From the IMG/VR virus record IMGVR_UViG_2675903433_000022: a stretch of 64,000 bases of DNA; one strand, written 5' to 3'. Source of the DNA: a virus (Duplodnaviria; Heunggongvirae; Uroviricota; Caudoviricetes). Below the pieces are notes generated by a model. That model was not told the DNA's origin, searched no databases, and was given only the letters and a program-made list of their open reading frames with translations. The first letter of the stretch is position 1, and each line of letters opens with the position of its first letter. This document shows positions 211 to 57,743 of the stretch, piece after piece. The translations under genes were made by a program, and so were the position numbers.

Positions 211-297
211 AAATAAATTGTTTTCTACCTTTTCTTATTTGTGAAAATAAACCAGCACTTGGTAGTGCTTATGTAACAGCAAAGAAGAGAAAAACAC

Positions 298-747
298 ATG
301 AGTAACAAAATCGAAAACCCCGTAGTTCTCATTCACAAGCGTGAGAACCACGACTCCTATGCCGTGACGATCACCAATGGGAGTCACGATTTTTACGATG
401 GTCTGCTAATGGCCTCAGTGTCGCCTGATGAGGCAGACAACTCTTTTGCCGTCTTCGCTATGGTTGGTTACTACATGGCTGCCGAAATTGAGAAGTTGCG
501 GGCGCAGAGAGAAGCATTAGCGGCGGAGAATGCAGCCCTGAAAGAATCTGAGCGAGCATTCGATGCGATGTGTGCCGAGGAACACGGAGATAATTGGGTT
601 AGCGAATTAACGGAAGCCCCTGCTACCGACGCTTTTCTGGCTGAGATACGAGCGCAGGGCGTGGAGATGTTTGCTGAGTGCGCATACACACTTGAACATC
701 ATGATCACGCAGTAGCCTTCGCCGCTGAGCTTCGCAAAGGAGCATGA
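298..747 (+). CDS. Hypothetical phage early protein
   Basis: 149 aa ORF, first gene of a tightly packed plus-strand operon; stop is 1 nt from next start. Confidence 0.6.
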   Translation: MSNKIENPVVLIHKRENHDSYAVTITNGSHDFYDGLLMASVSPDEADNSFAVFAMVGYYMAAEIEKLRAQREALAAENAALKESERAFDAMCAEEHGDNWVSELTEAPATDAFLAEIRAQGVEMFAECAYTLEHHDHAVAFAAELRKGA

Positions 748-748
748 T

Positions 749-994
749 ATGGCAACCAATAAAACGTTAGAAGCCGCCAACTTATGGCAGATTGAGCGTG
801 CAAGGTTTGAAGCGGAACACCCGGATTTGCGAATAATGCTTAACCGTGTCGAAGAGCAACTGCATTGCAATATTATGGCGTCGGTCATCATGCTTAATGA
901 CCTTTCTTATACCGTTCGAGAAGTTAAGCGCAAAGCTAACGCGAAAGAAGTAAATAGCTCACCGAATACAAATGGTGATGTGAAATGCAGATAG
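749..994 (+). CDS. Hypothetical protein
   Basis: 81 aa ORF; RBS-like aaaggagca upstream; coupled to preceding gene. Confidence 0.5.
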   Translation: MATNKTLEAANLWQIERARFEAEHPDLRIMLNRVEEQLHCNIMASVIMLNDLSYTVREVKRKANAKEVNSSPNTNGDVKCR

Positions 995-1154
995 TGTTCT
1001 TCGGCTTGCTTCCACACCCAATTCGCCTTTGGGCGTCAACATCACTCATAAAGCCGCATGTCTTTTCTGATGGAACCGGTATTCCTGCATCAAAGCGTCG
1101 TACCGGTATCGCGGCGGCACGGCGTGCAGCAAGGAAACGCAGGAGAGCAAAACG

Positions 1155-1325
1155 ATGAAAAACCGTAAAGCAAAGATTCTATTAGTTCGTAGAAACGACC
1201 CTCGAGTCTTGCAATGGACAAGAATCAGCAACAGGAGAACGGGATTGTTCACTCATGTTGGTCAGATTATGCACTCATTTCGGGATGGTGGATTTTGGTT
1301 AAATCATGATCGTGTCGAAAATTAA
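1155..1325 (+). CDS. Small basic hypothetical protein (56 aa)
   Basis: ATG preceded by gcaggagagcaaaacg (AGGAG, 9 nt spacing); below the ORF-track size cut-off; translated by hand. Confidence 0.3.
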   Translation: MKNRKAKILLVRRNDPRVLQWTRISNRRTGLFTHVGQIMHSFRDGGFWLNHDRVEN

Positions 1326-1336
1326 GGTGAAAGAAG

Positions 1337-1660
1337 ATGACCACATCGCATTCTGCTATTACCCAGGAAAAAGCCTTCCACATACTCGAACGATTAGAGG
1401 CGCTTGCTACGGAGGAAGATATATCACTGGAGAAACTGGTTGAGTTCAGCCGTGTGATATTGCGTCGCAAGAACGATATGGAGCGACTGACATCTGGCGC
1501 TCAATCCTTATCAGTCAGGCGAACACTTTGTTGCAGCTTCTGCAACAAATCCCAGTACGCCGTCAAAAAGTTAATTGCTGGGGACGCCGTTTTCATCTGC
1601 GACGAGTGTGTGGATGTGTGCAACAGAATTATCCGGGGAGAGAAAGAGGGATCAGCATGA
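1337..1660 (+). CDS. Protein with C-terminal ClpX-type C4 zinc-finger domain
   Basis: C-terminus [35 protein letters not shown] closely resembles the ClpX N-terminal zinc-binding domain; RBS aaggtgaaagaag before ATG. Confidence 0.6.
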
Positions 1661-2178
1661 AATTTTCCAAATTTTCTGAGTTGGTGAATCGTATTTTGTC
1701 CAACAACCACAGCCATCGTCGCGATATGGATGTAACGATCGTTGTTCATTCGCCTGGTCGCATCGGTTCAACACCATCAGTTGAGGTTCAGTCAATTCAG
1801 GCGGGTTTTGATTGGGATGCCGGGAAAGTGATGATTTTTCCAGCACAGCCACTGACCACGCTAACACCGGAGCAGGTTGCTGATATTACTGAAAGTGTGC
1901 ACAAAGGCCAGTCATGGCACGCGTATCAGGAATACAAGAAGCATAAAGAGCAGTTGGAAAAATTGTCGATGGAGTTGGAAGCCGCTAAACAGAGGGAAAA
2001 AGATCTGTTTATGGAAAATGTTCGACTTAAGTCAGGTATAGCCGGTCTGATACACCTCGGTATTCGATATGCGGATGTTGAGGTCATGAAAATTGCTGGA
2101 GATGCCCAGCTTTCTACTCCATGCACTGACAGCATCATAAACAGCATTGCAACAGGCATTCGCATTACAGCAGAGTGA
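1657..2178 (+). CDS. Hypothetical protein
   Basis: ATG at 1657 overlaps previous stop (ATGA); RBS gagaaagaggga; the track ORF from 1528 is an in-frame upstream extension overlapping the previous gene. Confidence 0.55.
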
Positions 2179-2381
2179 GTGATATGGATAAAAATACCCC
2201 TGCTTACTGGAGTTTATCACTTGATACCGAATGCCCAAAATGCGGTCACAATTTCGATCTGCTTTGTGATGCTGATTTTTGGGAGTTTTCTGGAGCGAAA
2301 CAGGCGTGTGAAGAAATAGAAGGTTACGAAACATGCTGTCCAGAATGCAACCATGAATTTAAAACAGATTTTGTGTATTGA
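2175..2381 (+). CDS. Small zinc-ribbon protein
   Basis: Two CxxC pairs (CPKCGH...CCPECNH); GTG at 2175 overlaps upstream stop, alternative ATG at 2184. Confidence 0.5.
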   Translation: MSDMDKNTPAYWSLSLDTECPKCGHNFDLLCDADFWEFSGAKQACEEIEGYETCCPECNHEFKTDFVY

Positions 2382-2391
2382 AGCATAGCAA

Positions 2392-2913
2392 ATGACCACC
2401 TTTACCAAAGAACAACTAATTGATCATATTAATGATCGCAAAGATGTCCGTCAGAGAATGTTGGATACCGCAACGATTTCTTCTGGATTCCGAGAATATC
2501 TTGAAAGAGAGCTTGCCACCGATCAGATTGCCCTAGCGTCGCTGGAAGCTGAACCTGTTCTGTATCAGTCCTGCACTCGCCCCACTTGGAATAGCGGTGT
2601 TCCGTGGACGGAATGGAAAGAACGTAGTCGTGAGGGCTACGAAAACGATTTGCGCTTTACAGACACGCCTGACCATGCCGGTTGGATAAACAAATGTCGA
2701 AAACTATATACCACTCCGCCAGCGTCACTGCTACCTGACGGACTGGTTAAAGCCGTGCGCTTCTATGAACAGGTTAAGCGTGAAAATCCGCCAGTCGAAA
2801 CCGGAGCATGGAAAGACGCGGTTGACTGGGTGCTTAAAGAGGCTTTCCAGGCTGTATCAGTGTTGGAAAGCAGTAGAGAACACGAAGTTATTAGCCAGCA
2901 GGAGAAGGCATGA
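2392..2913 (+). CDS. Hypothetical protein, N-terminal paralogue of the 3108-3812 product
   Basis: 173 aa; starts MTTFTKEQLI, same as the ORF at 3108. Confidence 0.6.
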   Translation: MTTFTKEQLIDHINDRKDVRQRMLDTATISSGFREYLERELATDQIALASLEAEPVLYQSCTRPTWNSGVPWTEWKERSREGYENDLRFTDTPDHAGWINKCRKLYTTPPASLLPDGLVKAVRFYEQVKRENPPVETGAWKDAVDWVLKEAFQAVSVLESSREHEVISQQEKA

Positions 2914-3098
2914 GACAACTTTACACCATTGTTATCGCATTTGTTTTTGGTTTTGGCGGCATTTGCGTCGGTGAGAGTGCTGGCTATAACCGTGGATTAA
3001 GTGAAGGAGTTGCTATCAGCAAGGGGGATAAGTGGGATTGTGCTTACTCATACGTGACTGGATTCCTTATGTGTGATCGAACCCCAAAATATAAGTAG
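2910..3098 (+). CDS. Small membrane protein
   Basis: 62 aa, hydrophobic N-terminal segment IVIAFVFGFGGICVG; ATGA overlap with upstream stop. Confidence 0.45.
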   Translation: MRQLYTIVIAFVFGFGGICVGESAGYNRGLSEGVAISKGDKWDCAYSYVTGFLMCDRTPKYK

Positions 3099-3107
3099 AG
3101 GCTATCA

Positions 3108-3812
3108 ATGACCACCTTTACCAAAGAACAGTTAATCTCCCATGCACGCGAAAGCGTTAGTTATCTGGAAAACTTGAAAGGACGTGTTAGCAAAGAAGGT
3201 GCGGACTGCAAAGTTGTTATTGAGATGGTTGCACGAGATCTAAAACTGGCTCGAATTGCACTGACCTCACTTGAGACAAAACCAATAGGTGCATTCCACA
3301 TTGCAGAACAGCAAGTTGACGGTACAAGTGACTACATCAAGGATGGAGAGTGGCCTATTGATAATGGGACAATTGAAGTATACGCCGCCCCTCCAGTGCC
3401 AGTAGTACCGGAAGAAAAACCAATGCCTAATCCTCTTAGCATGTACGCGGTTGATGCTGTTGCCGCTATTGCAGAGGTGAGAGGCTGGAACGCCTGTCGT
3501 GCCGCTATGCTTCAGAGTCAAGATAATTGCATTAAGGATGGTTGGATAAGCTGTAGTGAGCGAATGCCTGTAATCGGCGAGCTAAATTGGAGAACTGGTT
3601 TTCCTTTGCTGATTACGTGTGAGATCGGCGTTATACCAGCTTATTACGGCTTTGTGAGCGTTAATGGGGATAAGCATTATGGTTTTATGGAAAGTTTTAA
3701 ATACGGAGACGATCGCGGCGGCCATCCTAAAACTAATGAATATGGTCTGATTAGCAATGTCACACACTGGATGCCGCTACCAGAACCTCCGCAGGAGTCG
3801 AAGAGTGAATAA
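3108..3812 (+). CDS. Hypothetical protein (paralogous N-terminus)
   Basis: 234 aa; MTTFTKEQLI start shared with the 2392 product. Confidence 0.6.
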   Translation: MTTFTKEQLISHARESVSYLENLKGRVSKEGADCKVVIEMVARDLKLARIALTSLETKPIGAFHIAEQQVDGTSDYIKDGEWPIDNGTIEVYAAPPVPVVPEEKPMPNPLSMYAVDAVAAIAEVRGWNACRAAMLQSQDNCIKDGWISCSERMPVIGELNWRTGFPLLITCEIGVIPAYYGFVSVNGDKHYGFMESFKYGDDRGGHPKTNEYGLISNVTHWMPLPEPPQESKSE

Positions 3813-4026
3813 AGCAGAGTTATTTCAGAAAATATCGGCTCTCGCGACTGAATGCCACGCTATAGCATCTGAGCTTGATGTTGGCGATGAACGAACCGAG
3901 ATGTTCGAAATATACAGTGTGCTGCGCAATCTCTGTCGGCGTGGCTACGCCACTCAAGTAGGGCGAATGACTAACCCACTACTCTCATCCTGTGATGAGG
4001 ATGACTCGGATGAGGATGACGAATGA
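3805..4026 (+). CDS. Small protein with acidic C-terminal tail
   Basis: GTG at 3805 preceded by AGGAG at 3793-3797; C-terminus DEDDSDEDDE; track ORF from 3757 overlaps upstream gene. Confidence 0.4.
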   Translation: MNKAELFQKISALATECHAIASELDVGDERTEMFEIYSVLRNLCRRGYATQVGRMTNPLLSSCDEDDSDEDDE

Positions 4027-4877
4027 TGCATAAATCAGTAGCCGGTGAGTTTCAGAAGGAAGTCGATAATACTACCGTTCTATTGGACGATATTTTAAGC
4101 ATTCTCGCGCTGCTTGAGGCTGGCGATTGGTCAGAACATTGCACTAAAACAGAGCTAGGCGGTCGGCTTGAAAGAGAGATTACACGACTTATTGGTGATG
4201 CGCAGGAAGCTACAGTCACTAGTTATGAGTTAATCGCTGAAGCCTGGCGTTTGATGGATGGACAAGATCCTAAAACCAGCGATTGGCATAGCAAGGCTTC
4301 GAAGTATTTAAATTCCAATAGGGTAGAAAAAGTTGATGATGTGAAACCGAAGCCAGTAGATCACGGTTTCCGCGATAACTGCGAATGCTCTAGTTGCCAG
4401 ACCACGGCCCGTATTTGTTCCGAATTGACAGATAAGTCCAGCCTAATCTACGAAGTTAATGTAGGCGGTAATACATGGGTCGAATGCACAAGAGCTGCAT
4501 ACGTAAGAGCAAAAGACAAGGGTGAATTAACCAGAGTTGTTACCCATCACCCAAATAATGAGCTTAAAGATCACCAGATTCGAGAACTAGTGAACGAGTT
4601 GCGGGATATTGCGGTTACGTATCACGGAACGCAGCAATTGCGGGAGAAAATTGCCAGAGCAGTGAACAACTCGCTCAAAGGTGGACAATCCCAACCGAAA
4701 CGTATACGAATTACACATATAGGTGAAAACGGAACAGAAATCCCCCAATTTTCTGTTGGGGACATCTTTGATGTACATGGAGAAGAGTTTGGTGAGCCTC
4801 ACATCACTATGCCTAGTGGCCATGTTTACTGGCTAAGAGCTATGGAGAAATATGGTGATAAATGGGAAGTGTTATGA
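4023..4877 (+). CDS. Hypothetical protein
   Basis: 284 aa; ATGA-coupled start. Confidence 0.6.
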   Translation: MMHKSVAGEFQKEVDNTTVLLDDILSILALLEAGDWSEHCTKTELGGRLEREITRLIGDAQEATVTSYELIAEAWRLMDGQDPKTSDWHSKASKYLNSNRVEKVDDVKPKPVDHGFRDNCECSSCQTTARICSELTDKSSLIYEVNVGGNTWVECTRAAYVRAKDKGELTRVVTHHPNNELKDHQIRELVNELRDIAVTYHGTQQLREKIARAVNNSLKGGQSQPKRIRITHIGENGTEIPQFSVGDIFDVHGEEFGEPHITMPSGHVYWLRAMEKYGDKWEVL

Positions 4878-5415
4878 GGGATGCGAAGTTATGACCAAAT
4901 TTGGAAAGCTGGAAGCTCATTTGCTGACTCGTAACTACCGCCATGATATACACCCATATAGACAGTGGATTGATGAAAGCGAAGGAGTTGTTACATTCCC
5001 TCTATACAGGTTTGATGGGATGTTGGCCGGGTATCAGACATACAGACCAGGCGCTCCTAAGCAGCATAGCAATCCGAAGATGGCCCGGTATTTCACACGA
5101 GCGCACGGCAGACAGCTACTATGGGGTACCTATCTTCCTTTAAAAGATGGACCGATATGGATAACTGAGTCGATTTTTAAAAGTGCAGCAGTGCACAACG
5201 CGGGCGGAAATTCGTGGGCGCTGTTAGGCTCGACTTTCTCAGCAGGATTACGTCGTCAACTGGCAATGCTGCCGTATGACTTTCGTGTAATAGGTGACAA
5301 TGATGCGGCTGGCGAATCACTTGTGAAGTCTTTCGGAAAAGGTTTTGTGGCACCGGATCTTGACGAGCTACAACCACATGAAGTGTCTAATTTGATTTTT
5401 AGCCATAGCCAATAA
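4852..5415 (+). CDS. Hypothetical protein
   Basis: Track ORF; alternative ATG at 4891 with GAGGGA RBS. Confidence 0.55.
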   Translation: MVINGKCYEGCEVMTKFGKLEAHLLTRNYRHDIHPYRQWIDESEGVVTFPLYRFDGMLAGYQTYRPGAPKQHSNPKMARYFTRAHGRQLLWGTYLPLKDGPIWITESIFKSAAVHNAGGNSWALLGSTFSAGLRRQLAMLPYDFRVIGDNDAAGESLVKSFGKGFVAPDLDELQPHEVSNLIFSHSQ

Positions 5416-5431
5416 GTATCACTTCTCCATT

Positions 5432-5452
5432 AAGGCCACAACTAGTGGCCTT
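5432..5452 (+). terminator. Stem-loop aaggccacaactagtggcctt at end of early operon
   Basis: Perfect inverted repeat immediately followed by the AAACAAtTTGTTT palindrome. Confidence 0.5.
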
Positions 5453-5465
5453 AAACAATTTGTTT
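5453..5465. promoter_or_regulatory. 13-bp palindrome AAACAAtTTGTTT (recurrent early-region motif)
   Basis: One of at least 11 intergenic copies read in the sequence. Confidence 0.45.
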
Positions 5466-5538
5466 TCTACGTTTTCTTATTTGAGAAAATCACGTTGTTG
5501 GCAGCTCATAGGCTTGTTGTTATACATAGCTGTATAGA

Positions 5539-5895
5539 TTATGAGCGTAAATTATTAGCGGATTTTAAGCCATATTCACCGTTATAGTAATTACTCGCGT
5601 TCCATTCATTGGGAAGCTCTTGTCTGTCCAATGTATAGTGGCGCACGATGTAACGACCTGCATCTTCTTCGAGGTACAGGCGGACATAGCCAATGTGAAT
5701 TACCGGTATGGGCGGCGTTCGTATTGCATAGATGTCGCGGAGATATACCGGTAGCTCGACAAATGCATCAGGTGCATCTGTGATGCTCGTTTTTTCACAG
5801 TATTCATATAACGCATCGTTGATATCGTTAAGGGATTCATGATCGTATATTTCCAGGTAATTACCCCGATCGCGATGGTACTCGATTTTAGCCAT
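5539..5895 (-). CDS. Hypothetical protein
   Basis: 118 aa, start adjacent to upstream stop (TGAATG on minus strand). Confidence 0.55.
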   Translation of the reverse strand: MAKIEYHRDRGNYLEIYDHESLNDINDALYEYCEKTSITDAPDAFVELPVYLRDIYAIRTPPIPVIHIGYVRLYLEEDAGRYIVRHYTLDRQELPNEWNASNYYNGEYGLKSANNLRS

Positions 5896-6480
5896 TCAAA
5901 ATCCCCTATTATCGTTTTGCATTTCTCTAATCCGGTCCAGAACAACTTCATGTTGGGCTTGGATAGCGGCTTTTTCGTTTTCAAGCCGGGCAATAGACTT
6001 CTCTAATTCTTTGCTGTACCAGGCAAGTTGGGTAAGGTTCATCCGGTTGTGATCGAGAGTTGGCGACACCTCGACGTGATCCCCTTCTTCCTGCCTTAAT
6101 GAGAAGAGATTCATCTCATCCCTTGAGGAAAATTCAGCAACAATTTCTTGTTGATGATCCGGTCGCTGCGGCATCCTTGCCAGTATAAATGGCGGTTCTA
6201 TTGAAAACATGAATGACGGTTTAGACCGTGTTTTGACCCATCTAGCTTGCTGTCTTTCGGCAAGTTCACAGGCTTCATCATAGTTATCTACAAAACCAAG
6301 CACGGATGGACGGTCCCACGCGCCACCATTCAGACAATAAACAACAATTTTCCCGTCAGGTTCTGTAACTCCATAGGGATGGTCCCACCAGGCGTCCAGC
6401 TGGGCTTTGGAGCGTTTCTCGTTAGGAGTGCAGTCAAAATTTTTGGGCAATGCAGGATCGAGAGGAATGCGGGCAGGCAT
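5896..6480 (-). CDS. Hypothetical protein
   Basis: 194 aa; RBS aaggaa 6 nt before ATG on minus strand. Confidence 0.55.
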   Translation of the reverse strand: MPARIPLDPALPKNFDCTPNEKRSKAQLDAWWDHPYGVTEPDGKIVVYCLNGGAWDRPSVLGFVDNYDEACELAERQQARWVKTRSKPSFMFSIEPPFILARMPQRPDHQQEIVAEFSSRDEMNLFSLRQEEGDHVEVSPTLDHNRMNLTQLAWYSKELEKSIARLENEKAAIQAQHEVVLDRIREMQNDNRGF

Positions 6481-6614
6481 GGCTAATTCCTTATTAATTG
6501 ATTAGTAACGAGGTTACGCTGATCCAGCGGTGATGAATAGTAGCAAAGCGCACAAAGTCATCAGAGGGGTTAAGACCCATAACGCGTTTGCACCAAAGGT
6601 GCATCTTTAATGTA

Positions 6615-6634
6615 TACTGTATGGATAAACAGTA
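6615..6634. promoter_or_regulatory. LexA (SOS) box tACTGTatggataaACAGta
   Basis: CTGT-N8-ACAG match to the SOS-box consensus TACTGTATATATATACAGTA, 19 nt upstream of the UmuD'-like start, overlapping a TATACT -10-like hexamer. Confidence 0.6.
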
Positions 6635-6652
6635 TTTTGAGGTGAAAACGCT

Positions 6653-7042
6653 ATGGGCTTCCCTTCTCCTGCGGCGGATTATGCTGAGAGCCGTATTTCT
6701 CTTGATCAGCAGATAATTAGACATCCTTCAGCGACCTACTTCATGAGGGCAGCTGATAGCCATCATCGTGAGGGAATATTACAGGGTGCATTGCTGGTGG
6801 TCGATTCCTCACTTACCCCGGTTGATGGTTCTCTGCTTGTATGCGCTCTGGATGGGGAATATCGCGTAAAAAGATACCGGAAGTATCCACGTCAGCATCT
6901 GGAGGATTTAAGAACCGGTAAGAAGGAAGCATTGCCAAAGGATGACGATGGATGCACGGGCAGCAATGCCGTGTTTGGTGTGATCACTCACATTATCAAC
7001 GACGCAAGAAGTGGCGAGTTTGATGATTGTCCCGTGATGTAG
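6653..7042 (+). CDS. UmuD'-like S24 peptidase-family protein, lacking the N-terminal arm
   Basis: Begins MGFPSPAADY, matching UmuD just after its self-cleavage site as remembered; conserved HPSATYF and VK motifs; RBS GAGGTGA; no umuC downstream. Confidence 0.7.
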   Translation: MGFPSPAADYAESRISLDQQIIRHPSATYFMRAADSHHREGILQGALLVVDSSLTPVDGSLLVCALDGEYRVKRYRKYPRQHLEDLRTGKKEALPKDDDGCTGSNAVFGVITHIINDARSGEFDDCPVM

Positions 7043-7054
7043 GAGAACTGATTA

Positions 7055-7078
7055 GGCGGTGCAATGCACCGCCTTTTT
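7055..7078. terminator. Bidirectional rho-independent terminator
   Basis: ggcggtgcaatgcaccgcc hairpin plus T-run, between convergent UmuD'-like gene and apbC. Confidence 0.6.
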
Positions 7079-7079
7079 A

Positions 7080-8180
7080 TCACACTGCGCGGAATGCGAT
7101 TTCGCCAGGTATTACTTCACCTTGCCAATACATTTGGGCAGCAACGCGATCTGCGAGGTCACGATAAATAGCCGTAAATTCGCTATCTGGACGACTAATA
7201 ACGGTTGGTGTTCCGTTATCCAGATCTTCACGAAGAGAGATATGAAGTGGCATTTGGCCTAACAACTGCGTGTTGTATTTCTCGGCCAGTTTCTGTGCGC
7301 CACCGGTGCCAAAAATTGGCTCGTGATGACCGCAGTTACTGCAAATATGCATACTCATGTTCTCGACAATACCGAGCACCGGAACCTCGACTTTCTCGAA
7401 CATCACAATGCCTTTTTTCGCATCGATCAACGCGATGTCCTGCGGCGTAGTTACCACAACCGCACCAGTTACAGGAATGTTCTGCGCCAGCGTCAATTGA
7501 ATATCACCAGTGCCCGGCGGCATATCGAGAACGAGATAGTCCAGATCAGGCCATAGAGTTTCCTGCAACATCTGCATTAACGCCTTGCTCGCCATCGGAC
7601 CACGCCACACCATCGCATTGTCGTCAGTTACCAGATAACCAATTGAATTGGTTGCCAGTCCATGAGACATAATCGGTGCCATGTGAGTACCGTCCGGTGA
7701 GGTTGGACGTTGGTTTTCCGCGCCAAGCATGGTTGGAATTGATGGCCCGTAGATATCGGCATCCAAAATACCAACTTTCGCACCTTCAGCAGCCAACGCC
7801 AGTGCCAGGTTTACCGCCGTGGAGGATTTACCAACGCCGCCCTTGCCTGAGCTGACGGCGATAATGTTCTTAACGCCATTAATGCCTGGTTGGTTTTTGA
7901 CGCGCTTAAGCGTGGCAATGTTGTACGACAGCTTCCAGTCGATAGCCTTTGCGCCAGTGATACGGAGCAGATCACCACTACATTGCTCTTTCAGGTCTTC
8001 AAAAGGCTTATTCCACACGAAAGGCATGATTAGTTCGACATGCAGTGTGTCATCCATCAACGCAACATGGTGTAACGCTTTAAGCGTAGTCAGGTTGTGT
8101 TTCAGGGTTGGGTGCTGAAAATTAGCCAGCGTACCGGCTACCATTGCTCTCAGGGCATCCGGCGATTTGGACTCGCTCAT
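7080..8180 (-). CDS. apbC: Fe-S cluster carrier ATPase ApbC/Mrp
   Basis: 366 aa; SSGKGGVGKSSTAVNLALALA Walker A, CSNCGHHEPIFG motif; ortholog-level similarity to enterobacterial Mrp; divergent from metG as in enterobacterial chromosomes. Confidence 0.9.
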   Translation of the reverse strand: MSESKSPDALRAMVAGTLANFQHPTLKHNLTTLKALHHVALMDDTLHVELIMPFVWNKPFEDLKEQCSGDLLRITGAKAIDWKLSYNIATLKRVKNQPGINGVKNIIAVSSGKGGVGKSSTAVNLALALAAEGAKVGILDADIYGPSIPTMLGAENQRPTSPDGTHMAPIMSHGLATNSIGYLVTDDNAMVWRGPMASKALMQMLQETLWPDLDYLVLDMPPGTGDIQLTLAQNIPVTGAVVVTTPQDIALIDAKKGIVMFEKVEVPVLGIVENMSMHICSNCGHHEPIFGTGGAQKLAEKYNTQLLGQMPLHISLREDLDNGTPTVISRPDSEFTAIYRDLADRVAAQMYWQGEVIPGEIAFRAV

Positions 8181-8337
8181 CCCGTCTCCTTTATTTTAAT
8201 TTGCGCAATTGTCGCCTTGTAGTGTACTCCAGCTACGGCATTTAATCATTTATGAGAAATGCTGTTATCACATGGCAGACATAAGGCCATTTTGTTACTA
8301 TCAAGCCCCTTTTCACTACAAAGAAGTAATGCCTACT

Positions 8338-10371
8338 ATGACCCAAGTCGCGAAGAAAATTCTGGTGACGTGCGCGCTGCCGTACGCTAACGGCTCAATC
8401 CACCTCGGCCATATGCTGGAGCACATCCAGGCTGATGTCTGGGTTCGTTACCAGCGAATGCGCGGCCACGAGGTTAATTTCATCTGTGCCGACGATGCCC
8501 ACGGTACGCCGATCATGCTGAAAGCACAGCAGCTTGGTATCACACCGGAGCAGATGATTGGCGAAATGAGTCAGGAACACCAGACTGATTTCGCAGGCTT
8601 TAACATCAGCTATGACAACTATCACTCGACGCACAGCGAAGAGAACCGTCAGTTGTCTGAGCTTATCTATACTCGCCTGAAAGAGAACGGTTTTATTAAA
8701 AATCGTACCATCTCTCAGCTGTACGACCCGGAAAAAGGCATGTTCCTGCCGGACCGTTTTGTAAAAGGCACCTGCCCTAAATGTAAAGCGCCAGATCAAT
8801 ACGGCGATAACTGTGAAGTCTGCGGCGCGACTTACAGCCCGACTGAACTGATCGAGCCGAAATCGGTAGTTTCTGGTGCTACGCCGGTAATGCGTGATTC
8901 CGAACACTTCTTCTTTGATCTGCCTTCTTTCAGCGAAATGTTGCAGGCATGGACCCGCAGCGGTGCGTTGCAGGAGCAGGTGGCAAACAAAATGCAGGAG
9001 TGGTTTGAATCTGGCCTGCAACAGTGGGATATCTCCCGTGACGCACCTTACTTCGGTTTTGAAATTCCGAACGCGCCGGGCAAATATTTCTACGTCTGGC
9101 TGGACGCGCCGATTGGCTACATGGGTTCCTTCAAGAATCTGTGCGACAAGCGCGGTGATACCACCAGCTTCGATGAATACTGGAAGAAAGACTCCACCGC
9201 CGAGCTGTACCACTTCATCGGTAAAGATATTGTTTACTTCCACAGCCTGTTCTGGCCTGCCATGCTGGAAGGCAGCAACTTCCGCAAGCCGACCAACCTG
9301 TTTGTTCATGGCTATGTGACGGTGAACGGCGCAAAGATGTCCAAGTCTCGCGGCACCTTTATTAAAGCCAGCACCTGGCTGAATCATTTTGACGCTGACA
9401 GCCTGCGTTACTACTACACTGCGAAACTCTCTTCGCGCATTGATGATATCGATCTCAACCTGGAGGATTTCGTTCAGCGCGTGAATGCCGATATCGTGAA
9501 CAAAGTGGTTAACCTGGCCTCCCGTAATGCAGGCTTTATCAACAAGCGTTTTGACGGCGTGCTGGCAAGCGAACTGGCTGACCCGCAACTGTACAAAACC
9601 TTTACTGATGCCGCTGAAGTGATTGGTGAAGCATGGGAAAGCCGCGAATTTGGTAAAGCGATTCGTGAAATCATGGCGCTGGCTGATCTGGCTAACCGCT
9701 ATGTCGATGAACAGGCTCCGTGGGTGGTGGCGAAGCAGGAAGGACGCGATGCCGATCTGCAGGCGATTTGCTCTATGGGCATTAACCTGTTCCGCGTGCT
9801 GATGACGTACCTGAAACCGGTACTGCCGAAACTGACTGAACGTGCAGAAGCATTCCTGAATACAGAACTGACCTGGGATGGTATCCAGCAACCGCTGCTG
9901 GGCCATAAAGTGAATCCGTTCAAGGCACTGTATAACCGTATCGATATGAAACAGGTGGAAGCACTGGTGGAAGCATCCAAAGAAGAAGTGAAAGCCACAG
10001 CTGCACCGGTAACTGGCCCACTGGCTGACGACCCGATTCAGGAAACCATCACCTTTGACGACTTCGCCAAAGTTGACCTGCGTGTGGCGCTGATTGAAAA
10101 CGCGGAGTTTGTCGAAGGTTCTGACAAACTGCTTCGCCTGACGCTGGATCTCGGTGGTGAAAAGCGTAATGTCTTCTCAGGCATCCGTTCCGCTTATCCA
10201 GATCCACAGGCACTGATTGGTCGTCACACCATTATGGTGGCTAACCTGGCTCCGCGTAAAATGCGCTTCGGTATCTCTGAAGGCATGGTGATGGCTGCTG
10301 GCCCCGGCGGGAAAGATATCTTCCTGTTAAGCCCGGATGCTGGTGCTAAACCTGGCCACCAGGTTAAGTAA
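8338..10371 (+). CDS. metG: Methionyl-tRNA synthetase
   Basis: 677 aa from [29 protein letters not shown] (HIGH motif), KMSKS present, C-terminal tRNA-binding domain; track ORF 8209 is an upstream in-frame extension. Confidence 0.95.
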
Positions 10372-10393
10372 TTAAACAACCTCTCTTCGCAAT

Positions 10394-10418
10394 GCCCGGC
10401 AACACGCCGGGCATTTTT
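10394..10418 (+). terminator. Rho-independent terminator after metG
   Basis: gcccggcaacacgccgggc hairpin followed by TTTTT. Confidence 0.7.
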
Positions 10419-10456
10419 CATATAGACACAATCCCTTCTGATTTACACAGTACCTA

Positions 10457-10469
10457 AAACAATTTGTTT
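10457..10469. promoter_or_regulatory. AAACAAtTTGTTT palindrome
   Basis: Perfect copy ~40 bp after the metG terminator; second copy at 10508-10520. Confidence 0.45.
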
Positions 10470-10533
10470 TCTGCCTTTTGTTGATGGAGATAATAAACCA
10501 CATAAGAAAACAACTTGTTTTGGAGTGGTTGAA

Positions 10534-10833
10534 ATGTTGAACATTACCCAAGCCTACCAGGTGGCATTGATCAGCTCATCTCATACATCAGAGGAAGATG
10601 CTCGCCGATTCATGATCGCAAGCAATGAGCTGGATTGGGTTTCACAAATTGAGTACGGTTGCATTGTCCACGCCGGGTTACAGGACGATGACTGGAAAGA
10701 TGAGTTGCGTCGATATGGTATATCCGAGGGCGCGATTGCGAACATTCAGAAAGTACTTGATGTAGGCTTTGACTCTGTACATTTTGATTGTGGCGCACCG
10801 GTCGTTGAAGGGCTTGAGTGCTGGCAATGGTAA
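10534..10833 (+). CDS. Hypothetical protein
   Basis: ATG with GGAG 8 nt upstream; 99 aa. Confidence 0.55.
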   Translation: MLNITQAYQVALISSSHTSEEDARRFMIASNELDWVSQIEYGCIVHAGLQDDDWKDELRRYGISEGAIANIQKVLDVGFDSVHFDCGAPVVEGLECWQW

Positions 10834-10869
10834 TCCGGCAATCGCTTCATACTAGATAACGGAGAATTT

Positions 10870-11055
10870 ATGCTTAAAGAAGACTCATATCTACTAAAGG
10901 CGCTTGAAATGCGTGGCGTTGAACCTACAGTGAAAAACGCTCACGATATCTACCTTCAGTTTTCGCCAGAGCTGAAACAGCTCATAAATAAATATGGAGT
11001 GAATGACTCCAGCGTCAAAGCCATGATAGATGATGAATTAGACCATCTCATCTAA
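10870..11055 (+). CDS. Hypothetical protein
   Basis: 61 aa; RBS acggagaattt before ATG. Confidence 0.5.
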   Translation: MLKEDSYLLKALEMRGVEPTVKNAHDIYLQFSPELKQLINKYGVNDSSVKAMIDDELDHLI

Positions 11056-11159
11056 CCAAACCGTTGATAATGGCGGTCACAATTTGATTCTTTTCTATAA
11101 GAATCCGTTGATCGCCACTACTCCCCTTCCATACCTGCAATCATATCCTTAAATATCAA

Positions 11160-11950
11160 TAGGTTATAGTTGTTTGCACAAACAAGAAAACAACTGAATA
11201 ACAGATCAACGAAACGTCAACGCTTTCTCCCGATTTGGTCTAAAAAATTGACGTTTTCACACATCACTTCTTATACCCGTAATTCTACGCAGCAGATAGC
11301 GCCACAGCGTTCAATTTTCACCACAGACGACTCAACACACTACCAACAAAAACACACGCTCAAAATCGCTCCCGTTGCGTTACACAACCATATAAACAAC
11401 TTATTTTCAGGTATAACAAAACAACTAAATAACACATACGCCATTACCAAAAACAACCAACCTCTTTATGGCAGGCTACCGAAAAGACCCACCTCTTCTT
11501 CCCAGGCTACCGGACAGCCAACCTAACTTTCACAGGCAATCCGAAAACATTCATACGCGCGATACCCACGACACGCCATTACCCAAACATCGAAGAAACA
11601 CCAGAATCACTGAAACCCCAACGAAGTCTGTAACCGCAAGGCTTCTCTCAATCCCAAAAGACACGAAACATAACAATCACGGGAAACGCCATTACCCAAT
11701 ACACGAATAACTACAAAAGCCCTTCACACACTCCAGACAAACAACTCAAACACAATAACGAAAGGAATAGCCCACCTGCCATTACTCCATATACGGAGAA
11801 GAACAATAACCATAACGACGAGAACACCCCATAGAAGAACCACCGCAAAACGAACGAAACCACATACACCGACAGAGAAAACAACACACCCAATCCACCA
11901 ACAGAAATAGTCGCCCTATAGAACGTTCTGGTAGGAGTGAGCATTAACGC
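11160..11950 (+). other. ORF-poor, strongly C+A-rich (G-depleted on plus strand) tract; possible non-coding RNA or origin-proximal region
   Basis: No ORF with an RBS; plus-strand composition skew visible by eye; terminator hairpin at 12035-12058. Confidence 0.3.
11457..11557. repeat. Three tandem ~30-bp direct repeats (CAGGCTACCGAAAAGACCCACCT-type), family 1
   Basis: Units read at 11472, 11503, 11533; related set at 14618-14705. Confidence 0.5.
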
Positions 11951-12034
11951 CTATAGAGAGGTTGAGACAGATAAAACACGAAGAAAACACAACATGTATA
12001 GCGAAGAAGCCAGGTATGTATAAGTGGGGAGGGA

Positions 12035-12058
12035 AGGAGGGGTGTCGCCTCCTTTTTC
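12035..12058 (+). terminator. Rho-independent terminator
   Basis: aggagg-ggtgtcg-cctcct hairpin followed by TTTTT. Confidence 0.5.
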
Positions 12059-12120
12059 GTATTTATTCAACTCCTGATTTTATCCCCCGTAACACCCCTA
12101 CGGTCAGCCTTCGGTCCATA

Positions 12121-12942: not shown

Positions 12943-13096
12943 ACCCAACCAAAGCCAGCAATGCTGGCTTAACTTCATCTGTAGCCGCAGGGAAGAACCT
13001 GCATATCGCTCATGCGCCTGATCAATATGCTTTGTAGCCGTTTTCTTACTGGTATTATTTACGCCATTGAGAAAACAAGTTGTTTACGGAGTTGTG

Positions 13097-53935: not shown

Positions 53936-54672
53936 AACGCACATACTCTAAAAATCTTTATGAGTTTCCTCACCGTGGGGAAACTCGCGTTTCACGTTTT
54001 GGCTACCTCATCAACGAAGCATCGCTTTTCAAAATATCTGAAATAACCATTATCGAGCCTGATGATGATATCTGTCTGTATATCCTGATGGAGAAAGTTG
54101 GAGCACGAGATCAGGGTGAACTGATGGACTTCATTCTGGACAGAGGCGAAGATGGAATGTCTGATTCGGACATTATTCAAGCAATTCTGCGTTCCGACAT
54201 GCTCGATCAGAGCAGAAACACGATAGCAGGCAGAATTGCCTTGCGTGAATACACATTCATCGAGGATGGGGTAGAGATTGACTGCTATCAGATTGCAGGT
54301 GTTGAAACAGAAAGAGCAATAAGGCAAAGGGGACTGTGCAACCTCACGTATCGCTTCCTCCTTCATTGGTACGAACATCTTGTCTGTGATTACAATCAGA
54401 CCATTCCTGGCGCAAAAATCTGGGCCGGTCCATTAATGCGAACAGGTGATGTAAGAATTTACAACGCAAAAACTGAGACGTTCGAGGATGTGTTAGGCGA
54501 ATATGGGATGGGAAAAGAAACCGGCTTTTTGCCGTGGAACAGAGGATTGTTACTTGATCCAGAATTAAGCTCTTGGTTTCCAAATAAGGTGCAAGTTAAC
54601 GTTGAGAAATTTATCGTACTTATCATCTCCCGCAAAACAAGAACCCCAGTTGGTTTATATCTAAAAGATTAA
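53920..54672 (+). CDS. Hypothetical protein
   Basis: 250 aa, overlaps upstream gene by 16 nt. Confidence 0.55.
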   Translation: MAPTLERTYSKNLYEFPHRGETRVSRFGYLINEASLFKISEITIIEPDDDICLYILMEKVGARDQGELMDFILDRGEDGMSDSDIIQAILRSDMLDQSRNTIAGRIALREYTFIEDGVEIDCYQIAGVETERAIRQRGLCNLTYRFLLHWYEHLVCDYNQTIPGAKIWAGPLMRTGDVRIYNAKTETFEDVLGEYGMGKETGFLPWNRGLLLDPELSSWFPNKVQVNVEKFIVLIISRKTRTPVGLYLKD

Positions 54673-54677
54673 CAATT

Positions 54678-54700
54678 AGGCGACTTCTGTCGCCTTTTTT
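54678..54700 (+). terminator. Rho-independent terminator
   Basis: aggcgac-ttct-gtcgcct hairpin plus TTTTTT. Confidence 0.65.
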
Positions 54701-54800
54701 GTTAACAGCCATTGATTCTCGCCTAAAAATTCTAAGGCAGCACCTACCATTTAACCTTTACACAGCAGCCGTAGGCATTTAGGCTATATCACATATAAGA

Positions 54801-54813
54801 AAACAAGTTGTTT
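54801..54813. promoter_or_regulatory. AAACAAgTTGTTT palindrome upstream of parA-like gene
   Basis: Perfect copy 36 nt before the ATG. Confidence 0.45.
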
Positions 54814-54848
54814 CAGACAATAATAATAGACGCAAAGGGAACTCTCCA

Positions 54849-55517
54849 ATGACCAAGATCTTTGTGGTTGGCGGCACAAAGGGCGGGCCTGGCAAATCCA
54901 CTGTTGCCCAGCAAATTGCCGTTTGCCTGAAAGTCAAAAAGAAGAAGAAGGTTTATATCACTGATATAGATATTCAGCGCACGACAACAAGCTGGTGTGA
55001 AGACCGTCGACAGAACGAAGACCTTGAGCTGATTCCTTTTGCCTACGTTCAGGATGACATCATTAAGCACCTAAAATCGCTTCAGGGTAGAGCTGAGTTT
55101 GTAGTGGTAGATGCTGGTGGCTTTGACTCCGAAATTCAGCGACAAGCGATGCTGATGGCCGACGTTATCATTATCCCGCTGCGTCCTAAGCGTCGTGATT
55201 TGAAATCTCTGCGTGACATCGATCCTATTATCGACAATGTTCGTAATGTAAACGATAAAGTGAAGGTCCGCGCGGTCATGAACCAGTGCCCGGCTTTGCC
55301 ATCACAAGTGTCTCGCATTCTGGCGGCTAAAGAGATTGTCGAGACGTTTGGCATCGAGTCTGCGCCAGTCAATCTATATAACCGCAACGTCTACGATGAT
55401 GCGGAAGAGTCTGGTCGTTCTATCTTCGAAATGACCGGTAGCGAGCGCGACAAAAAGGCTGAAGCCGAGTTTGAAGAATTTGTAGATTATCTGTTGAGTC
55501 TGGAGGAAGAAGAATAA
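54849..55517 (+). CDS. ParA/ParF-family partition ATPase
   Basis: Deviant Walker A KIFVVGGTKGGPGKST; 222 aa (small type Ib ParA size). Confidence 0.85.
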   Translation: MTKIFVVGGTKGGPGKSTVAQQIAVCLKVKKKKKVYITDIDIQRTTTSWCEDRRQNEDLELIPFAYVQDDIIKHLKSLQGRAEFVVVDAGGFDSEIQRQAMLMADVIIIPLRPKRRDLKSLRDIDPIIDNVRNVNDKVKVRAVMNQCPALPSQVSRILAAKEIVETFGIESAPVNLYNRNVYDDAEESGRSIFEMTGSERDKKAEAEFEEFVDYLLSLEEEE

Positions 55518-55876
55518 TGTCCATGAAAATGGGTGACCTAGCAAAGCGCAAAGAGCCTGATGCACCGGCTAAGAACACAACTCCTTTGCGCCAACCAGTC
55601 AGACCACAGGGACGCCCGACTCGTGGCAAAGAGAAAATTAAGAGCCGCACGATGTCACTGGAGGACGAATACTTCGAACTGCTGGAGATGATGAAGTTCA
55701 TCCCTCGTTTCGAGAAATTCACCCGTTCAGACGTGATTCGCGCAGCCATTTTCCATCTGGCAGAGAAGTCACCGCAGGAAATCGAGGACATCGTGAAACT
55801 TAACGAGGCGATCACAGCTGCCGATGTCACGATGCGTACCGATGAAATCAAACGAGAGTTGATGAAAAAAGGTTAA
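55517..55876 (+). CDS. ParG-like small partition / centromere-binding protein (putative RHH)
   Basis: 119 aa, basic disordered N-terminus, TAATG-coupled to ParA-like gene. Confidence 0.55.
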   Translation: MSMKMGDLAKRKEPDAPAKNTTPLRQPVRPQGRPTRGKEKIKSRTMSLEDEYFELLEMMKFIPRFEKFTRSDVIRAAIFHLAEKSPQEIEDIVKLNEAITAADVTMRTDEIKRELMKKG

Positions 55877-55928
55877 AAATCATGCATTGGCGCAATGTAC
55901 GCGCCAATGCATAACTACAGTGTCAGCT

Positions 55929-56696
55929 TTATGCCGCGCTAACACTATGTTCAGTCCTAACCACCCCAACCTTCACAAAAGGGCTACCGTAGCTTGGTGG
56001 CTTCTTGATTAATTTGCCTACATACAGTTTTCTAATATGCTCATCGGCTATTCTGCCAACAAATTCATAACGTTTTGTGTCGGGGCCAAGAGCTATATCC
56101 CTTGTAAAGTACTGCTGAGAACCGGCTTTGACCCAGCATTCAATCCGATAAACTTCCATTATCAGCCCACCATATGTAGCGTAGGCATATTTGAGATTCT
56201 CGTCTCTTGGAACCTTTGCCCATACGCCACGCGTAGCTTCATATAATGCCAGAGCGGACATTCCTGACTTGTAGGTGCTGTTTAGCAGGAAGGCAAGACC
56301 GGCGTGCTCAGGAGCAATTTCAGTTTCCTCTTGCAGCACTAAGTGATGGTAGGCGTCCAGTGATATTCTGCCCATCATGGAACCACTTCCTCGTACCTTA
56401 TTCGTAAGCTCTCCGACCCCCATAAGGTCGATGCATGTCGCCTCAACAAGTTTGGCTGTGGTTTCATCCATACCATGACGAAGTATATCTATGCCTAATT
56501 TTTTATTAGCCAAAAGTTCTTTGATCCGCATGGATTTGGGAGAGTCATCGGGATACTTGATGTGATCGAGACAACGAGTCGATTTGCCTTTTCCTATGTA
56601 AAACGGTCTTTTCATCTTGTCTTCTGTATCATAGAGACAGTAAACATAGTATTTAGCCTTATCCAATGATCTCGCGTATACCGATAAATCGTCCAT
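55929..56696 (-). CDS. GIY-YIG nuclease-domain protein
   Basis: N-terminal YVYCLYD...PFYIGKGKSTRCLDHIK matches the GIY-(10-11)-YIG pattern; lone minus-strand gene. Confidence 0.65.
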   Translation of the reverse strand: MDDLSVYARSLDKAKYYVYCLYDTEDKMKRPFYIGKGKSTRCLDHIKYPDDSPKSMRIKELLANKKLGIDILRHGMDETTAKLVEATCIDLMGVGELTNKVRGSGSMMGRISLDAYHHLVLQEETEIAPEHAGLAFLLNSTYKSGMSALALYEATRGVWAKVPRDENLKYAYATYGGLIMEVYRIECWVKAGSQQYFTRDIALGPDTKRYEFVGRIADEHIRKLYVGKLIKKPPSYGSPFVKVGVVRTEHSVSAA

Positions 56697-56807
56697 TATT
56701 GCATCTCTTAGCTACTGACTAATGCGTTCTATTTTACACATAAGTTTTTAATCAATTTAACAGGCTCAAAGTGTAGAGCTTCTGGGCGTCTAAGACGACA
56801 AGTTATG

Positions 56808-56866
56808 CCTGCTTCCGTATATATAAATAATAAGTAACTTATTAAATATATACAGAAGCAGGTCTT
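56808..56866. repeat. ~56-bp imperfect palindrome, copy 2
   Basis: Core tatatataaataataagtaacttattaaatatatac identical to copy 1; stems reverse-complemented. Confidence 0.6.
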
Positions 56867-56945
56867 TTAAAAGACACCACCAGAACAACTCCCTTCCGTT
56901 TCCACTTCCAAAAACTGCCACCAGTCGCTATCATCCGCTCATTGT

Positions 56946-56967
56946 GATAAGTAAGTAACTACCTACC
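56946..56967. promoter_or_regulatory. GATAAGTAAGTAACTACCTACC, late-type motif copy
   Basis: Immediately upstream of the 56979 gene. Confidence 0.4.
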
Positions 56968-56978
56968 AGGTGAGCCAC

Positions 56979-57719
56979 ATGAGCCAAATCTTTTTCGATA
57001 CCATCGACAACGACCAGTACGACTTCATGACAGAGTGGAATACCGCTGTTATGGACAAGTGGGTCGCTGAAAACATTGGTTTGTCGCGCTGTAAAGACGA
57101 GGCTGAACTCTTCGAGACGAAGTGGTTTGATTATCGCGACATGCATCCTCTCATGGCCACCTGTCTTTTTACGGAGGCATACAAACGTCAGTACTCAAAT
57201 ATCATGCTGACGCACGGTCGCGAACACTTTGAAACAGCTCCGTTCACCACCGGGTTAAAACGCCTGCCTTATCAGGAGTTGTCGACTGCCAATAAAACGT
57301 CGCTATGGAAAGCACGCCAGTTTGCTGACCGCTATTGCTGCTCATACGACTACTTTATCTCCACCGTTCTTTCCGCAGCTGCACGACGACTGTGGGACAA
57401 GCTGCCGCGTCCGCAGCATTTGTGGCAGCCAGAACTGATTGAGATATTCGAAGATAAATTAGCCAGACGCGCAACAACCCGTCTGGATGACTCTCTGGTT
57501 AGCTTTAAGCATATGGGAGACATGCAGTTCAACCCGATTCAGGAAAGCTATTTTGAGTGGATTCTTGAGCGTTTACGCGCCATCCCCCGCAGCAAGCGCA
57601 TACGCGCAATTTTCTCCGCTATCTGGCTAATGGAAATCGTTCCAGAGCGCCTTATTTCCGCCCACTTTCCAGAAGAACTGGAAGAAGCACGGCGGTTTAT
57701 TGATCCCCTATCTAATTAA
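56979..57719 (+). CDS. Hypothetical replication-module protein
   Basis: ATG with AGGTGA RBS; upstream of the helicase gene. Confidence 0.55.
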   Translation: MSQIFFDTIDNDQYDFMTEWNTAVMDKWVAENIGLSRCKDEAELFETKWFDYRDMHPLMATCLFTEAYKRQYSNIMLTHGREHFETAPFTTGLKRLPYQELSTANKTSLWKARQFADRYCCSYDYFISTVLSAAARRLWDKLPRPQHLWQPELIEIFEDKLARRATTRLDDSLVSFKHMGDMQFNPIQESYFEWILERLRAIPRSKRIRAIFSAIWLMEIVPERLISAHFPEELEEARRFIDPLSN

Positions 57720-57730
57720 CTAATACTAGA

Positions 57731-57743
57731 AAACAATTTGTTT
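57731..57743. promoter_or_regulatory. AAACAAtTTGTTT palindrome upstream of helicase gene
   Basis: Perfect copy 20 nt before the ATG. Confidence 0.45.

Follow-up and report, generated by a model that had tools for sequence, protein, structure and literature searches.

A recurrent 13-bp palindrome as a putative operator of dispersed promoters in SSU5/pHCM2-type phage-plasmids

What is the role of a short palindrome that recurs, almost unchanged, in front of very different genes of a phage? We addressed this question in a 64,000-nucleotide stretch of Caudoviricetes DNA (IMG/VR record IMGVR_UViG_2675903433_000022, hereafter the window), where a preliminary description had listed 12 copies of a 13-base palindrome, AAACAAnTTGTTT. 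All 12 coordinates hold the motif, seven of them exactly and five with one mismatch. The site is real, strongly selected, and family-wide; the kind of system is well known, and we found no published description of this new instance of it. Our preferred explanation, to which we give a probability of roughly 0.58, is that the palindrome serves as an operator in double-stranded DNA, bound by a dimeric and sequence-specific repressor that the element itself encodes. It is ranked above a reading of the motif in RNA by an FljA-type protein, which comes second because five points argue against it (see below).

Sequence similarity assigns the window to the SSU5/pHCM2-type phage-plasmids, with Escherichia phage Cyrano as a close relative. 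In a megablast search, positions 5000-15000 matched Escherichia phages of ~108 kb (CMS-2020a, PhiR41_1, and Cyrano) with an identity of 95-97%, and showed an additional 1.8-kb stretch common to P1/P7-type phages. The window matches Cyrano at ~85.6-108.4 kb plus 1-38.3 kb. Its small early genes are followed by a minus-strand block, two ParB-like genes, and the terminase, then by head, tail, and lysis genes, parA, and helicase-primase-ligase genes. In E. coli LF82, Cyrano is known as the phage-plasmid pLF82, which is SSU5-like and ciprofloxacin-inducible (PMC9928086). Phage-plasmids of the SSU5/pHCM2 type are common in clinical Enterobacterales, and a 4.5-kb probe from the window matches 704 PLSDB plasmids from Klebsiella, Escherichia, Enterobacter, Salmonella, Citrobacter, and Cronobacter. 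Full-text literature searches on the regulation of these elements found no operator, promoter map, or regulator, and a full-text search for the motif sequence itself found no published description.

Abundance, conservation, and promoter positions of the palindrome

The window contains seven exact sites and 13 with at most one mismatch, including one at 11394 (AAACAACTTATTT) that was absent from the earlier list (Table 1). The chance expectation, computed from 100 dinucleotide-preserving shuffles, is 0.01 exact sites and 0.46 with at most one mismatch, and the observed counts were reached by 0/100 shuffles. The complete relatives Cyrano (9 exact sites, 18 within one mismatch) and SSU5 (20 sites) would be expected to have ~0.3, and almost all of their sites are intergenic. 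In Cyrano, which is fully annotated and only 13.2% intergenic, this holds for 9/9 exact sites (binomial P ~1e-8) and for 15/18 sites of the one-mismatch set (binomial P ~3e-11); two of the three "genic" sites result from mis-called start codons. The enrichment for which a motif search had been proposed is there, far above the shuffles in the window and concentrated in intergenic DNA in Cyrano. Taken by itself, the left half-site (AGAAAACAA) is present in 14 copies for 1.2 expected, but only four of these are outside full sites, in coding or non-promoter contexts. In a 16-mer scan of IMG/VR, multi-copy loci were found, among the matches listed, only in contigs of 90-112 kb, which is the size of this family.

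The conservation of the motif is very uneven along its length. At orthologous sites, 0/144 arm columns vary, against 111/600 flank columns (P = 7e-12), and the center base is variable at 6/12 orthologous loci. To avoid a bias from selecting loci by their motif, we anchored the helicase and parA loci on start codons only, with no motif filter. Perfect arms (12/12 bases) were found in 78/79 helicase loci and in 54/54 parA loci; at the helicase loci, the center base is T in 47, A in 20, and C in 11. Relatives with ~72% DNA identity and elements of Nissabacter, Enterobacter, and Klebsiella have the same motif without change, and each of the six arm positions is complementary to its counterpart, even positions 6 and 8 next to the center. 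These data imply that the 12 arm bases are under strong selection and that the center base is neutral. Invariant arms around a neutral center are the sequence signature of a protein reading two identical half-sites.

To place the motif relative to promoters, we predicted hexamers and start points from sequence; those of the helicase and parA promoters are fixed by conservation across diverged relatives. The hexamers near the motif resemble ordinary sigma-70 elements, relative to which the motif takes three positions: over the -35 (center ~-38), across the start point (helicase), and, mostly, at ~+8 to +20. A hairpin or terminator precedes the -35-type sites (211, 5453, 10457, 13975). The TTT at the end of these sites and a following TCT make up TTTTCT, homologous to TTTACT in sister promoters and located 16 bp before a -10-like GATAAT or GAAAAT, which puts the center of the motif near -38. 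The downstream position is deduced from the -10 spacing in 27 independent loci: the last T of the -10 was found 14 nt upstream of the motif in 25/27, a good -10-like hexamer (GATAAT, TATTAT, TACATT, or similar) lies 12-14 nt upstream in 14/27, and the three bases preceding the motif are AGA or AGT in 20/27. The motif would therefore be at ~+8 to +20. The helicase promoter, available in four diverged versions, reads TTGAnC-16-nAnnAT, with a -10 (TAGTAT, TACGAT, CATAAT, or AATACT) that ends 3-5 nt before the motif, so that the start point should fall inside the left arm. The parA promoter has TTTACA or TTGTCA, 17 nt, and TAGGCT, ending 15 nt before the motif, and its -35 and -10 are conserved in the diverged relatives L210 and L213 (L-numbered labels, such as L058, L084, L090, and L213, designate the relatives compared).

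Two paired layouts recur at unrelated loci. In the first, a -35 site and a +8 site are 51 bp apart, as in 10457/10508 and in Cyrano (93114/93165), SSU5 (88319/88370), L084, and L100. In the second, tandem leader sites are 25 bp apart, as at the small-terminase gene terS and at 11394, where the decayed pair of the window is exact and tandem in distant relatives (L084 2129/2154, L086 1598/1623). Variants may be retained as well: the terS pair is kept with its G11 variant in Cyrano, SSU5, and L058, and the orthologues of site 13975 in L084, L086, L087, and L088 have the same T1 variant. For opposite-strand genes, the whole arrangement is mirrored (L110, L090).

These positions lead us to amend several points of the preliminary description. 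Most copies were said to lie 15-45 nt upstream of a start codon, which describes well seven sites (11-40 nt), but the -35-type sites are 58-74 nt away and 5453, since it lies between convergent genes at the edge of the P1/P7-like insertion, is followed by no gene on its strand. Several copies were said to directly follow a terminator hairpin; this is true of four, namely 211 and 5453, which adjoin one, 13975 (15 nt after), and 10457 (41 nt after). The assignment to early and replication genes was too narrow, since parA (54801), the small-terminase gene (23853/23878), and nucleotide-metabolism operons also carry the site. Beyond the window, complete relatives have it at cobT-like, nrdB-like, and tciA-like genes, among others. 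Finally, the suggestion that the palindrome is part of an element-specific promoter class is not supported, as the motif occupies at least three positions relative to the -10/-35 (centers near -38, +4, and +14). A phage RNA polymerase or sigma factor was found neither among the annotated genes of the complete relatives nor in the window proteins screened. The three positions are all within -45 to +21, which fits an occluding repressor and not a fixed promoter element.

Some further features of these promoter regions were recorded. Window positions 1-16000 have 33 terminator-like hairpins against 14 expected, and 13 strict sigma-70 consensus matches, below the 25 found in shuffles. Some -35-type promoters of three relatives (L101 612-680, L156 331-400, and L084, reverse complement, 4842-4900) have only the left half-motif at +8, i.e., AGAAAACAAC/G followed by unrelated sequence. 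Either the operator has decayed at these promoters, or the A-rich left half serves a separate role. Between the terS tandem sites and the Shine-Dalgarno sequence (SD), positions 23892-23920 hold a hairpin (AGAGCGC-atggac-GCGCTCT) and then GTGTGTTTT, which suggests a possible control of the packaging operon by attenuation or antitermination.

A putative repressor and its candidate reader

The operator for a dimeric regulator, also put forward in the preliminary description, is the best supported proposal given the dyad, the free center, the invariant arms, and the promoter-footprint positions, although the operator is still putative. Every copy is inside predicted promoter DNA that is needed by RNA polymerase, so a bound protein would block polymerase binding or promoter escape. 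In the mechanism that we propose, one repressor would hold down ~18-20 dispersed sigma-70-type promoters together, including those of the small early genes and of the helicase-primase-ligase, nucleotide-metabolism, terminase/packaging, and parA operons. The hold would be tighter where a promoter has two sites, be it on both sides of the core promoter at a distance of 51 bp or within the leader at 25 bp. That the regulation is repressive, how it works, and which protein reads the site are what we infer from these data. A single invariant 13-bp site on ~20 promoters provides a direct experimental handle, as well as a list of co-regulated operons.

Gene expression in Cyrano lysogens has been published (RNA sequencing; PMC9928086, Table S1). 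The first genes after sites read 5.7-13, for a background median of 9.8, with the exceptions of parA (50, and 89 for its partner gene), the helicase (21), and CYRAN_111 (25.5) (PMC9928086). The strongly expressed lysogeny genes have no site (expression from PMC9928086). Motif-bearing genes are thus at lysogen background except for the parA operon, in a prophage where most genes are silent anyway. The parA operon, which bears a site yet is moderately expressed, looks like an autoregulated repressor operon.

Which protein could read the site? Six candidates are conserved in the window, Cyrano, and SSU5: the 119-amino-acid partner of ParA, an FljA-like protein, an 88-amino-acid winged-helix-like protein, a 71-amino-acid protein, and two ParB_N proteins. 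Of these, ParA's partner and the FljA-like protein alone are expressed in lysogens. We tentatively regard ParA's partner as the leading candidate, with odds well below even. Its gene overlaps the stop codon of parA. ParA itself (222 amino acids) has no N-terminal DNA-binding domain and matches the full profile of NF041546 ParA_partition (E = 2e-33, below the curated cut-off) as well as MipZ, AAA_31, and CbiA. The N-tail of the partner is basic and disordered. Conservation is highest in the stretch KSRTMS(L/I/M)EDEY...TRSDVIRAAI, which is invariant and resembles the strand and two helices of ribbon-helix-helix proteins. In two of its distant homologues, RHH_1 matches below the threshold fall in precisely this register, and the partner has a weak aCcr1 match. 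Stronger tests of the ribbon-helix-helix fold all failed, and the protein has no Pfam domain, ParB_N included. The region 54300-57000 has no repeat array that could be a separate centromere near parA, only the single 13-bp palindrome. In relatives with an identical motif, the FljA-like protein is 52-57% identical and ParA's partner 48-64% identical. The motif stays the same while the candidate readers diverge, and co-variation is therefore uninformative on the reader.

Two annotated repressors were discarded. In the control region of the CI-like repressor of Cyrano (CYRAN_45), no sequence comes within two mismatches of the site and another palindrome is found, and SSU5 has 20 sites and no homologue of this repressor or of its divergent neighbor. 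The other, SSU5_116, is annotated as a "repressor-like protein" and located among early promoters, but homologues of it are lacking from the window, from Cyrano, and from four other relatives. The Cyrano block at 40268-43038 (OV696614), which encodes an integrase, the CI-like repressor, and a divergent small gene, is absent from SSU5. The palindrome GGTAAGTGCTTACC lies between the repressor and the divergent small gene, and CYRAN_43, in the same block, has by far the highest expression in lysogens (~7000 for a background of 10).

In its logic, the motif system works like the dispersed operator regulons of KorB/KorA, omega, and C1, and it is a member of none of them. The operators of KorB (OB, TTTAGCSGCTAAA) and KorA in plasmid RK2 are also 13-bp palindromes with a single central base, found in about a dozen dispersed copies at replication, partition, and other promoters, some of them upstream of or over the -35. 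KorB belongs to a partition system whose own operon carries the site, a layout shared by our candidate reader. However, AAACAAnTTGTTT is unrelated to the OB consensus. KorB is a ParB-family helix-turn-helix protein and CTPase, whereas a ParB_N domain is missing from the neighbor of ParA in the window, and the genes of the two ParB_N proteins lie 33 kb from parA and are silent in lysogens. The sites also differ in being mostly at +8 to +20, with none seen to act at a distance, and in having phage lytic genes as targets.

The likeness to omega of pSM19035 and ParG of TP228 concerns the operon itself: a small ParA lacking a DNA-binding N-domain precedes a small partner whose basic N-tail is disordered, and the site is present in a par operon that is moderately expressed while other targets are off. 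If ParA's partner reads the site, it would act like omega or KorB (RK2), partition proteins that double as global repressors, and one protein would couple partition with global repression. A phage would then have its segregation and lytic silencing in a single system, in the manner of RK2 and pSM19035. Omega and ParG nevertheless bind arrays of 7-bp or 4-bp repeats where we find single 13-bp palindromes, they have 3-4 plasmid promoters as targets and not ~20 over a 108-kb phage genome, and the ribbon-helix-helix fold of the partner is putative. P1 C1 resembles our system in biology, as in this plasmid prophage many scattered, promoter-overlapping operators silence lytic operons, including that of the replicative helicase (ban). 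The P1 C1 operator is an asymmetric 17-bp sequence of the ATTGCTCTAATAAATTT type read by a monomer, in contrast with the symmetric 13-mer of different sequence described here, and no C1-operator sequence is present. The motif also differs in sequence from the LexA (SOS) box, CTGT-N8-ACAG; the P7 sequence homologous to 5204-7033 has an annotated LexA box of its own, ahead of humD.

Alternative readings of the site

The alternative that survives best, although we find it unlikely, is that the motif works in the 5' leaders of mRNA, where an FljA-family protein would read it, block ribosome binding, and destabilize the message. In the plasmid state, leaky lytic, replication, and partition messages would thereby meet an additional, post-transcriptional brake. 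Salmonella FljA acts on the fliC leader in this manner as the post-transcriptional switch of flagellar phase variation, the one role for which the family is known, and the phage-plasmids have an FljA-family core gene. The encoded protein matches the full PF03614 profile (E = 2.5e-84) and is modeled as two tandem Sm/Hfq-like domains with no helix-turn-helix. The gene is core and syntenic in all SSU5-type relatives examined, in the order UvsW helicase, ~100-amino-acid gene, FljA-like gene. The family link to FljA rests on the Pfam match and the fold, because the protein search did not reach genuine flagellar FljA. The placement of most sites also suits this reading: 27/33 loci would be in the transcribed leader, between the predicted start and the SD, on the sense strand and 1-33 nt before the SD. 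The core CAAGUUG is common to the motif and a fliC-specific leader segment, but this match covers only 8/12 arm bases and was noticed after the fact.

Five points argue against RNA. First, the remaining 6/33 loci (4/13 window sites), around a fifth of the total, lie upstream of the -10 of their own promoter, usually just after a terminator, and should not be in that transcript. Second, the predicted helicase start falls inside the left arm, and the RNA would lack the full palindrome. Third, the 13-mer is unfolded (minimum free energy 0 kcal/mol), its hairpin is in the minimum-free-energy structure of 0/7 inferred leaders, and z-scores are unremarkable, i.e., no stable RNA structure is apparent. 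In the same vein, Rfam 15 gave 0 matches at or above the gathering score over the whole window on both strands. Fourth, complementarity extends to positions 6 and 8, which a triloop would keep from pairing. Fifth, the spacing of the motif is tied to the -10 (mostly 12-14 nt) and is looser to the SD (1-33 nt), so that its geometry follows the former. There is no compensatory change either, because the arms never vary, and the FljA target is not known as a palindrome. The more specific claim that an FljA-family tandem-Sm protein reads the motif on nascent or mature leaders of ~20 phage operons seems to us slightly less probable than the RNA reading in general. If it were true, a repressor of translation acting across the genome would be partly responsible for keeping the plasmid state, Salmonella FljA would have come from a phage-regulator family by domestication or exchange, and this family would gain a second, much larger regulon.

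We hold it for less probable again that the DNA site is read by a lytic-phase regulator and not by a lysogenic repressor. Such a protein would, after induction, shut early promoters, time the packaging operon, or activate at the -38 sites. It could be one of the two ParB_N-domain proteins (20544-21910), the 88-amino-acid winged-helix-like protein (23469-23735), or the 71-amino-acid protein (63243-63458), all four of which are 70-90% identical in SSU5. The 88-amino-acid protein has weak winged-helix matches to Sta1, Lrs14, and the LexA N-terminus, and its gene directly precedes the terS double site. As for the ParB_N proteins, members of the ParB family bind compact palindromes conserved through the center; the KorB site has 13 bp and a single central base. 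A center near -38 is close to the class II activator position, but +4 and +14 are positions of repressors, not of activators. No domain evidence links any of the four proteins to the motif sequence, and their genes are all at lysogen background (5-9.5). Being silent there, they cannot explain the silence of apparently ordinary sigma-70-type promoters in lysogens.

Least probable of all is that an Enterobacterales transcription factor or nucleoid protein recognizes the palindrome, recruited to tie promoters to host physiology: the motif is identical across Escherichia, Salmonella, Klebsiella, Enterobacter, Citrobacter, and Cronobacter elements and every candidate element-encoded reader diverges to ~50% identity, but this divergence is no argument against an element-encoded protein since the putative DNA-reading stretch of ParA's partner is invariant, the repeated motif is, among the IMG/VR matches listed, only in contigs of this family's size, and we know of no E. 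coli operator consensus (PurR, KdgR, LacI-family, CRP, FNR, Fur, LexA) that matches it.

Sites of the window, module junctions, and neighboring genes

Table 1. Palindrome sites of the window and genes of the two lysogen-expressed candidate readers. Promoter elements and positions are predictions.
Feature	Position	Strand	Sequence	Predicted promoter context	Neighborhood
Site 211	211-223		AAATAAATTGTTT, 1 mismatch	-35 type; last TTT + TCT = -35-like TTTTCT; -10-like GAAAAT 243-248	Adjoins hairpin 190-210; next gene 298-747 (Eae-like); Cyrano orthologous site 85818
Site 5453	5453-5465		exact	-35 type cassette; GAAAAT 5485-5490	Hairpin 5430-5454; no + strand gene downstream; junction with P1/P7-like module (5204-7033)
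Site 10457	10457-10469		exact	Over -35 (center ~-38); -10 GATAAT 10489-10494	Upstream member of 51-bp pair
Site 10508	10508-10520		exact	13 nt 3' of GATAAT (~+8 to +20)	Downstream member of 51-bp pair; SD GGAG 1 nt after; gene 10534-10833 (DUF5983)
Site pair 11394	11394-11431		AAACAACTTATTT and, 25 bp on, AAACAACTAAATA	Decayed tandem pair	Now within open reading frame
Site 12588	12588-12600		AAACATGTTGTTT, 1 mismatch	13 nt after GATAAT (12569-12574)	Gene start probably 12613
Site 13073	13073-13085		exact	14 nt after TATTAT (13053-13058)	SD GGAG 2 nt on; gene start 13097
Site 13975	13975-13987		TAACAATTTGTTT, 1 mismatch	-35 type; GAAAAT 14007-14012	15 nt after intrinsic terminator; likely start codon 14047
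Site 14739	14739-14751		AAACAATTTGTTA, 1 mismatch	14 nt after GATAAT (14719-14724)	Gene 14772-15254
Site pair 23853/23878	23853-23890		23853-23865 AAACAAGTTGGTT, 1 mismatch; 23878-23890 exact	Tandem pair 25 bp apart, 3' of CCTAAT (23834-23839)	In leader of small-terminase gene (23931); terminator-like hairpin 23892-23911 after pair
parA promoter	54757-54813	+	Site 54801-54813, exact	TTTACA 54757-54762, 17 nt, TAGGCT 54780-54785, 15 nt, site (~+9 to +21)	parA gene 54849-55517
Helicase promoter	57700-57743	+	Site 57731-57743, exact	TTGATC 57700-57705, 16 nt, AATACT 57722-57727, 3 nt, site (spans predicted start point)	Helicase gene 57763-59103
Candidate reader, ParA's 119-amino-acid partner	55517-55876	+			Lysogen-expressed; own operon carries site
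Rival reader, FljA-family protein (Pfam PF03614)	17619-18143	-			Two tandem Sm/Hfq-like domains

Several sites are associated with the borders of gene modules. A hairpin cassette, AAGGCCAnnnnnTGGCCTT, immediately followed by the motif, is present at window positions 190-223 and 5430-5465 and at SSU5 positions 85602 and 87625, all of them module junctions. Directly after the cassette at 5430-5465 is inserted a P1/P7-like module (5204-7033) with upf93.6, upf94.2, a LexA box, and humD, which is absent from Cyrano and 90-91% identical to P7, SJ46, and P1 variants; in SSU5, the cassette likewise adjoins an inserted opposite-strand gene. By analogy with the promoter-early stem-loop (PeSL) cassettes of T4-type phages, the hairpin-plus-motif cassette may be a recombination hot spot. 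PeSL cassettes are also repeated units of a terminator hairpin and an early promoter flanking small early genes, and the recurrence at module junctions (211, 5453; SSU5 85602, 87625), sometimes beside inserted opposite-strand genes, is alike. They are defined by promoter and stem-loop and not by an invariant dyad operator, whereas the dyad here is also found at otherwise unrelated promoters (parA, helicase, terS, cobT-like, nrdB-like). The junction cassette may help explain the uptake of foreign modules such as the P1/P7-like humD block.

The genes around the sites differ in part between relatives. A GIY-YIG (LEM-3-like) nuclease gene follows the par operon (55929-56696, minus strand) at a place where Cyrano has a different, plus-strand gene, CYRAN_30; it looks like a homing-endonuclease-type insertion. 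The window also encodes a methionyl-tRNA synthetase (8209-10371), divergent from a MinD/ParA-like ATPase (7080-8180, minus strand) that is expressed in Cyrano lysogens. The relative L090 (E. coli record CP125919, 385-398 kb; ~72% DNA identity) is collinear with window positions 12.2-22.9 kb. It sits in a record deposited as a 5.2-Mb chromosome, and may be an integrated copy or an assembly join. Finally, an AT-rich 17-nt inverted repeat at 56808-56862, with arms that are 94% complementary and 21 nt apart and an embedded palindrome, lies upstream of the gene preceding the helicase and could be an origin-like or terminator element.

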